Source of the DNA: Shigella phage vB_SHGBLB0004
Sequence record: PV654518
Length of the DNA stretch: 11,151 nt
Reading direction: 5' to 3' (one strand)
Shown: positions 168-458 of the stretch, one piece after another
Layout of the letters: the number at the start of each line of letters is the position of its first letter
How positions within the stretch are numbered: the stretch's first letter is position 1
Translations under genes and position numbers: made by a program
The notes under the pieces: generated by a model
The model's input: the letters and a program-made list of their open reading frames with translations, nothing else
What the model was told of the DNA's origin: nothing
The model's database searches: none

Positions 168-458
168 ATGATTCAACTTTTTTCACTGTCTCTTATTAAT
201 TACATTAATTCACGTTTTGAAGTTGGCACAGAAGTTTACTTATCAGATTCTAATGATTCTCAAAATGCTATTGCATTCTCTCATGAATCTGGTAATATAT
301 ATTGGTCAGTTGGGGTTGAGTTAGAATCTAACAAGGTAGTGGTTAACACTGTTTATTTAGATACCGACTACAATAAAGAGTTTGACGAAACCCAAAAATA
401 TGATACACTAAAACAAGTGGTAGAAACAATCATCTACCAGATTAACAAACTTAAATAG
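168..458 (+). CDS. Hypothetical acidic small protein (96 aa from ATG 168; ORF track gives alternative start at 126)
   Basis: GAGGA Shine-Dalgarno at 156-160, 7 nt before ATG 168 and in frame with the longer 126 start. The protein is net acidic (about 14 D/E versus 7 K/R by eye). No recognisable motif. Confidence 0.6.
   Translation: MIQLFSLSLINYINSRFEVGTEVYLSDSNDSQNAIAFSHESGNIYWSVGVELESNKVVVNTVYLDTDYNKEFDETQKYDTLKQVVETIIYQINKLK

Follow-up and report, generated by a model that had tools for sequence, protein, structure and literature searches.

A conserved gene just interior to the left terminal repeat of Shigella phage vB_SHGBLB0004 encodes a small folded protein that may bind a host factor

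The question raised by the left end of Shigella phage vB_SHGBLB0004 (sequence record PV654518) is what a very small tailed phage does with the first gene inside its left inverted terminal repeat (ITR). The stretch analysed, here called the window, comprises 11,151 bp and represents a complete or nearly complete Astrithrvirus-like genome with a phi29-type gene set. The gene in question, gene A, encodes a protein of 96 amino acids (aa). A preliminary description made from the sequence alone had given it this length and position, which the open reading frame (ORF) and the exact terminal repeat confirm (Table 1), and had proposed that its product is a strongly acidic DNA mimic or anti-defence protein. 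The present analysis establishes that gene A is a genuine conserved gene under purifying selection, whose family is confined to Astrithrvirus-like phages. As to function, the explanation tentatively favoured here is that the product acts early, binding a host protein as an inhibitor or adaptor.

Gene A can be regarded as more than a chance ORF because of its homologous clusters, the selection acting on it and the confidence of its structural model. Seventeen homologous clusters were found in a first search, 28 by profile search and 51 with a wider profile, and an exhaustive HMMER scan recovered 17 clusters at 50% identity among 1.84 billion protein representatives. The E-values of the homologues range from 1e-53 to 1e-7. 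Family members are 94–113 aa long, apart from a few truncated fragments and one protein of 1232 aa (P0039, 14 stretches), which was set aside as a repeat artefact. Codon-level dN/dS is 0.11–0.27 in the eight comparisons with relatives that were computable. Homologues occur only on phage contigs, and those contigs that are long enough measure about 11–12 kb; no gene A homologue was found in the plasmids and E. coli genomes searched, nor did hmmsearch of the six-frame translations of phi29 and GA-1 give any match. The family is already present in databases as "hypothetical protein", and the ORF of phage DU_PP_III is unannotated.

The genomic context of the family is equally uniform. The order A-B-C is identical in all metagenomic relatives retrieved, and in the genomes compared for family membership gene A stands at the head of a short inward-facing operon, followed by gene B (~50 aa) and gene C (~101 aa), on linear genomes of ~11 kb that also carry a phi29-type polymerase, ATPase, portal and major capsid protein (MCP). 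By tblastn, gene A is 48% identical to the DU_PP_III ORF and 45% identical to that of S.Kent. Profile comparison with hhalign reaches a probability of 95% for Entb_47 gp1 and 69% for Astrid ORF015; both are divergent orthologues, Astrid ORF015 also by the fold match to the 111-aa counterpart of phage assan described below. Gene A is absent from the Acinetobacter phage Phanie, the one Acinetobacter member of the group, which keeps both B and C. Therefore, gene A lies outside the minimal replication set, and in the enterobacterial branch it counts as an accessory. In Vibrio K58 g2, the protein encoded at the equivalent position has no significant similarity to gene A (hhalign 1.5%, hmmsearch E 0.36).

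The start of gene A can be read at two codons, and a gene caller chose the upstream one, ATG 126, for P0001, giving a protein of 110 aa. This reading was rejected in favour of ATG 168, because a GAGGA ribosome-binding site lies shortly upstream of the latter, because all homologues open with M-I/V-E/Q-L/F-F, because the closest 96-aa homologue (P0002) has no extension, and because the predicted −10 hexamer is located downstream of ATG 126. The ribosome-binding site is kept in relatives, as GGGGA in L009 and as GAGGA in L011. A sigma-70-like promoter, found by consensus scan, is conserved in these same two close relatives, with TACTAT as the −10 hexamer; it is a putative promoter, recognised by consensus, and probably drives the operon of A, B and C. 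Scans with Rfam and for tRNAs revealed no RNA gene within or close to the ORF.

What this protein looks like could not be learned from sequence databases. The preliminary description saw no recognisable motif in it, and this holds, as there is no credible match in Pfam, PHROGs, NCBIfam or the PDB sequences: the sole NCBIfam listing has E 0.04 and 12 bits against a cut-off of 593, and PDB sequence profiles gave only noise (E ≥ 0.58). An AlphaFold2 model built from a 22-sequence alignment is confident (pLDDT 88.7, pTM 0.81). The predicted order of elements is a short N-terminal strand, a helix at residues 7–14, five meander strands and a helix at residues 81–95. The predicted protein is thus a sandwich of two layers, one being a five-stranded meander sheet and the other the N- and C-terminal helices, which lie over one of its faces. 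It has no transmembrane segment, and it is proposed to be soluble and cytoplasmic.

Conservation mapped across 26 divergent members shows that D30 is the sole invariant residue besides Met1, and that F5 and N33 hardly vary. Strong conservation also marks the N-terminus, the turn motif S-N-D-S-Q-N-A-I (residues 28–35), Y45/W46, E53/N55, D65, D73 and T80. In a branch of 104–111 aa, which bears an N-terminal extension, the turn motif is replaced by D-Y-D-W-D-N-H-V or D-N-D-W-P-C-T-V. As alternate loops of a meander sheet share one end, the conserved residues are expected at the same end of the sheet, where the N-terminus (M-I-E-F-F), the D30/N33 turn, the E53/N55 loop and D79/T80 would form, by this topology, one conserved polar and acidic patch. 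The alternation of residues along the strands suggests that I35, F37, I44, W46, V48, V50, V57, V59, V62, L64 and F72 lie under the helices, and that the open face of the sheet presents small residues (A34, A36, G49), aromatic ones (Y45, Y63) and acidic ones (D65, E71, D73). An acidic residue is kept at position 73 in 92% of members, at position 65 in 81%, and at positions 71 and 61 in 54% each. Basic conservation is limited to the C-terminal residue. Since the protein has only 7 Lys and Arg residues and no conserved basic patch, it is unlikely to be itself a DNA binder.

The closest structural relative of this model is found within its own group. Among viral predicted structures (BFVD), Foldseek gave a single match at E ≤ 0.001, with a TM of 0.77, to the 111-aa product of the first gene of Salmonella phage assan. 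A BFVD match to a 94-aa ORF of GA-1 (TM 0.62, E 0.016) was discarded as too weak, and it was not assignable between ORFO and ORFC. The PDB search returned nothing at E ≤ 0.001, the top match being T7 Gp1.2 (E 0.053, TM 0.45/0.51 over 51 columns). The weak structural neighbours are small inhibitor or immunity proteins, namely TriTu, T7 Gp1.2 and PsiB. Like the gene A product, Gp1.2 (PDB 7U65 chain G, 2MDP) is a small (85 aa) and mildly acidic (pI 5.1) protein of an enterobacterial phage, and, as in the gene A model, an antiparallel sheet has the N- and C-terminal helices on one of its faces, a real though generic likeness. Gp1.2 inhibits the E. coli dGTPase through its N-terminus and helix α1, which bind the target, with the N-terminus inserted into the dGTPase active site (PMC9478638). 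In the gene A product, too, the N-terminus ranks with the best-conserved parts. The toxin immunity proteins TriTu (7ZHM_D), TriX and IFT/Rv3902c and the RecA inhibitor PsiB (3NCT) are small α/β sandwiches that bind enzymes stoichiometrically, and PsiB is expressed from the first-entering DNA of a mobile element.

The preliminary description had considered, in general terms, an early, small and acidic blocker of a host factor. This idea is still plausible because of the host-type promoter at the genome end, the absence of the gene from Phanie and the weak fold neighbours that are inhibitors or immunity proteins, whereas its DNA-mimic form has found no positive support, given the low charge density and the lack of p56 similarity detailed below. 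The model proposed for the inhibitor or adaptor is as follows. The host RNA polymerase would transcribe gene A, as the first gene of the A-B-C operon, from the sigma-70-type promoter by the genome end, presumably early in infection. The folded protein would then bind a host protein stoichiometrically and thereby block or redirect it, by analogy with T7 Gp1.2 and the dGTPase, PsiB and RecA, or immunity proteins and toxins. The contact surface would be the conserved patch at the end of the sheet, and possibly also the open sheet face.

In support of such a host-binding role, gene A is a phage-specific gene under selection, it is preceded by a host-type promoter in an operon that stops at a terminator-like hairpin, it is missing from Phanie, its product has a compact predicted fold with conserved residues in alternate loops and is unlikely to bind DNA, and over long range it diverges more than the core genes. 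In L003, gene A is 46% identical, compared with 71% for the family-B polymerase (PolB) and 79% for MCP (71–81% for the core genes PolB, ATPase and MCP). MCP is still about 65% identical in Astrid and Entb_47, but BLAST detects no gene A there, and only profile or fold reveals it. A more ambitious version of this role would make gene A the founder of a new fold family of phage-encoded inhibitors, one that only the smallest tailed phages with Gram-negative hosts possess. Through the conserved N-terminus/D30/N33/E53 patch, the protein would act as a uracil-DNA glycosylase (UDG)- or dNTPase-type inhibitor or as an antitoxin-like blocker of an abortive-infection effector. This version is rather doubtful; if it were true, an inhibitor of the UDG or dNTPase type would protect protein-primed, strand-displacement replication.

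Several observations weigh against the host-binding role. Among closer relatives, gene A diverges about as fast as the core genes (86% against 90% for PolB in L011, 72% against 74% in L012). Typical anti-defence loci are hypervariable, whereas gene A stays in synteny, is inherited vertically and experiences ordinary purifying selection. The likeness to Gp1.2 is also limited, as the sheet of that protein has three strands under two helices and the gene A model has five (PMC9478638), and homology to Gp1.2 is ruled out at the sequence level, with an hhalign probability of 0.2%. Identity to the immunity proteins and PsiB is just 3–8% over the structural alignments, and the window genome has no toxin partner. 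Furthermore, the binding surface is argued from residue alternation and loop topology, not from coordinates. Finally, an operon shared with the near-universal genes B and C would equally suit an accessory of replication or genome organisation.

This last point leads to an explanation that is nearly as likely as the favoured one. The gene A product is possibly a replication or genome-entry accessory like phi29 p17, p6, p1 or p16.7, which would aid internalisation of the remaining genome, recruit or organise the initiation complex of terminal protein and polymerase, or act together with B and C. Its position matches that of phi29 gene 17: each comes first in a short operon, an early one in phi29, that reads inward from the end opposite the genes for polymerase and terminal protein (genes 2 and 3 in phi29), and p17 is also acidic (pI 4.33). 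In phi29, internalisation of the final ~35% of the genome and the initial rounds of replication require p17 (PMC2771126; PMC11476376). The acidic early proteins of phi29 are mostly replication proteins (p17, p6 and p5), gene A keeps its synteny with B and C in the examined relatives except Phanie, its purifying selection is of the ordinary kind, and a genome of 11 kb probably has hardly any gene that the basic cycle could spare. However, Phanie replicates without gene A, and p17 differs from the gene A product in length (166 aa against 96 aa) and in profile (probability 0.6%). When all early proteins of phi29 and GA-1, p56, p6 and p17 among them, were compared by hhalign, no probability exceeded 1.7%, and the top matches did not include p56. 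Replication proteins are not among the better fold matches either, and the few basic residues, with no conserved basic patch, make direct DNA binding unlikely.

The acidity of the protein was at the origin of the DNA-mimic idea, in which an acidic surface would resemble the DNA backbone and competitively inhibit a host enzyme that binds DNA, for example a restriction enzyme of type I, the target of Ocr and ArdA, or UDG, the target of phi29 p56 and PBS2 Ugi. The gene A protein has a pI of 4.42, with 14 Asp and Glu residues (14.6%), 7 Lys and Arg residues and a net charge of −7. "Strongly acidic" overstates this composition, since its acidic fraction falls within the range of the phage's other proteins (0.09–0.17) and amounts to the proteome background, compared with 29% and a net charge of −28 over 117 aa in T7 Ocr, and 21% and −7 over 56 aa in phi29 p56. 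Charge per residue is −0.07 for gene A, −0.24 for Ocr and −0.125 for p56, so that its charge density is about one third of that of Ocr and about 60% of that of p56. What is unusual about the protein relative to the rest of the proteome is its low basic content. Acidity is kept across the family (pI 4.1–4.8, net charge −4 to −12), with P0033 (pI 6.06), P0036 (5.01) and P0038 (5.16) as outliers. It discriminates poorly between roles, because acidic phi29 proteins, namely p17, p6 (pI 4.53) and p5 (pI 4.89), act in DNA binding or replication.

A true DNA mimic is improbable as an explanation of gene A. The net negative charge maintained in the family would suit it, as would the open sheet face, which seems partly acidic by residue alternation (D65, E71, D73 and residue 61), and mimics show many unrelated folds, so that a new fold is no obstacle. 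Inhibition of UDG, as exerted by p56, is biologically sensible for a protein-primed phage, as it would protect single-stranded replication intermediates. Ocr, p56 and the gene A product are all small, acidic phage proteins, but they share no fold or profile similarity, and no known DNA mimic or UDG inhibitor appears in the Foldseek lists from the PDB or the viral predicted structures. Compared with mimics of the Ocr and ArdA type, gene A has a low density of Asp and Glu, and its predicted fold is not related to that of a known mimic. What the family keeps invariant is D30, N33 and a hydrophobic N-terminus, with no carboxylate array, and the positional counterpart in Vibrio K58 g2 is neutral (pI 6.7), although its homology is unproven (E 0.36). 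The avoidance of GATC and CCWGG in this genome points to passive evasion of restriction, which is still compatible with an inhibitor. The preliminary interpretation stays speculative, and its DNA-mimic form is unsupported rather than refuted. The preliminary description had also cited p56 as an example of a gene at the first-entering end, and this does not apply: gene 56 (0.8) of phi29 is at the left end, and the end that enters first is the right one, which carries gene 17 (PMC2771126, PMC11476376).

The left end also harbors a tandem ACTAGTAC motif. Exact copies of ACTAGTAC are present in the window and eight relatives; all of them are near a genome end or the end junction, and the carriers include both ITRs of DU_PP_III and Vibrio K58 g2. 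This repeat may be a conserved operator, an origin-binding motif or a motif bound by the terminal protein. Gene A could also be imagined in a regulatory or lifestyle role, either in an early-to-late switch acting on the host RNA polymerase or on the ACTAGTAC repeats, or in the management of a helper phage. To this role we assign little probability. A phage without its own RNA polymerase needs some temporal control, the conserved motif adjoins the operon promoter, several relatives entered the databases as a lysate's second genome, and satellite status is proven for Phanie (PMC11476376, section 2.6). Nevertheless, the gene A product has neither a DNA-binding fold nor a basic surface, its fold matches include no likeness to a known anti-sigma factor or appropriator, and Phanie, the sole member proven to depend on a helper, lacks gene A.

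The Astrithrvirus-like phages, with ~11 kb and 14–15 genes, are among the smallest tailed phages, and each unexplained gene in them represents a large share of unknown biology. If gene A encodes a host-factor inhibitor, it would reveal what a minimal protein-primed phage must neutralise in Enterobacterales, and the anti-defence toolbox would gain a compact binder of 96 residues. If it encodes a replication or entry accessory, it would be a Gram-negative counterpart of phi29 p17 or p6. For a family that has the standing of a well-defined but ordinary conserved hypothetical, the gene model, the family boundaries, the predicted fold and a putative conserved patch are fixed here, and the specific expectation of a DNA mimic falls away.

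Table 1. Coordinates of the left-end features of the window, of the strands of the gene A model and of related features in other genomes
Feature	Position	Strand	Remarks
Left ITR	1-60		Exact 60-bp match to right end, 11092-11151
Further TTGACA hexamers	30-35 (inside ITR), 89-94	+	Sequence scan
Tandem ACTAGTAC (x2)	71-86	+	Immediately upstream of TTGACA at 89
Sigma-70-like promoter, TTGACT-17 nt-TACCAT	109-137	+	Consensus scan; direct repeat D2; -10 at 132-137
Ribosome-binding site GAGGA	156-160	+	Read from sequence; 7 nt upstream of ATG 168
Gene A, 96-aa coding sequence	168-458	+	ATG 168; stop codon ending at 458
Gene B, 50-aa basic protein, pI 9.2	472-624	+	Second gene of operon
Gene C, 101-aa protein	673-978	+	Most conserved left-arm gene, 52-64% identity across group
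Bidirectional intrinsic-terminator-like hairpin	998-1018		Convergence of short left operon and long right operon
Five meander strands of gene A model (residues)	24-28, 31-39, 42-51, 56-65, 70-78		
ACTAGTAC copies in relatives, part 1	L001 38-45, 11460-11467; L009 50-65; L011 27-34, 131-138		
ACTAGTAC copies in relatives, part 2	L012 54-61; L014 14-31; L019 7157-7164, 7361-7368		
Extra 48-64-aa ORF between genome end and gene A	L003 117-281; L014 195-341; L015 2-163; L016 3-197		

The two genes that follow A in the operon are more widely kept. Gene B was found by tblastn in five of six relatives, including Phanie, with no match in DU_PP_III, and it is annotated as a 50-aa coding sequence in Vibrio K58 g2. 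Gene C has 26 invariant residues, and B and C are retained in nearly the whole group, including Phanie and Vibrio K58 g2. [quoted passage not shown] The assignment of gene C to this function was not reproduced, as hhalign against GA-1 p5 gave 0.2% and no Pfam SSB family was matched. In clades other than that of the window (window, L009–L011), an extra ORF of 48–64 aa lies between the genome end and gene A.

The group to which the window belongs consists of Astrithrvirus-like phi29-type mini-podophages of ~11 kb with Gram-negative hosts, in line with the published Astrithrvirus group of ~11-kb phages that infect Gram-negative bacteria (PMC11476376). A whole-window megablast against deposited phages found no close nucleotide relative, and relatives are found only at the protein level. 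The window encodes a family-B polymerase (PHROG 1907), a phi29-type MCP (PF25622, E 6.5e-65), a portal (PF05352), an encapsidation ATPase, a holin, tail-knob proteins and a CHAP lysin, and a 199-aa protein occupies the position of the terminal protein. Twelve genes run leftward from the right end, and the three small genes A, B and C run rightward from the left end.

The ITR of the window is shorter than those of its relatives (DU_PP_III, 219 bp; Phanie, 171 bp; Astrid, 84 bp), so that the true ends, linked to the terminal protein, may have been trimmed off in assembly. The repeat also begins differently, with CACACC in the window and with GGG(A/T)TATCCGCCCC in DU_PP_III and Phanie. Hence, the placement of gene A at the extreme left end stands insofar as it is the first gene past the ITR in the window, but the end itself may lie further out.

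GATC is strongly avoided genome-wide (11 sites observed, 27.2 ± 4.7 expected), and so is CCWGG (0 observed, 8.0 ± 2.6 expected). This avoidance is consistent with passive evasion, within an enterobacterial host, of Dam/Dcm-linked or EcoRII-type restriction.

Several related records (OX458330.1, OZ195715.1, OR850881.1) were deposited as the second genome of a phage lysate (Aci01-2-Phanie, K58 g2 and S.Kent NODE_9). Phanie needs the tail of its helper myophage (PMC11476376, section 2.6). The window phage has no recognisable receptor-binding fibre gene, and a satellite lifestyle like that of Phanie may apply to it.

The endolysin module (window 1023–1478) varies among otherwise syntenic relatives: a CHAP endolysin is found in the window, L009–L011, Astrid and DU_PP_III, a PF00959 lysozyme in L003 and L012–L017, and an L-Ala-D-Glu peptidase in Entb_47. 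Finally, the 166-aa ORF at 3444–3944 (−) is listed from a GTG codon, and its orthologues have 139–146 aa; translation probably begins some 20 codons further downstream, at an internal ATG.
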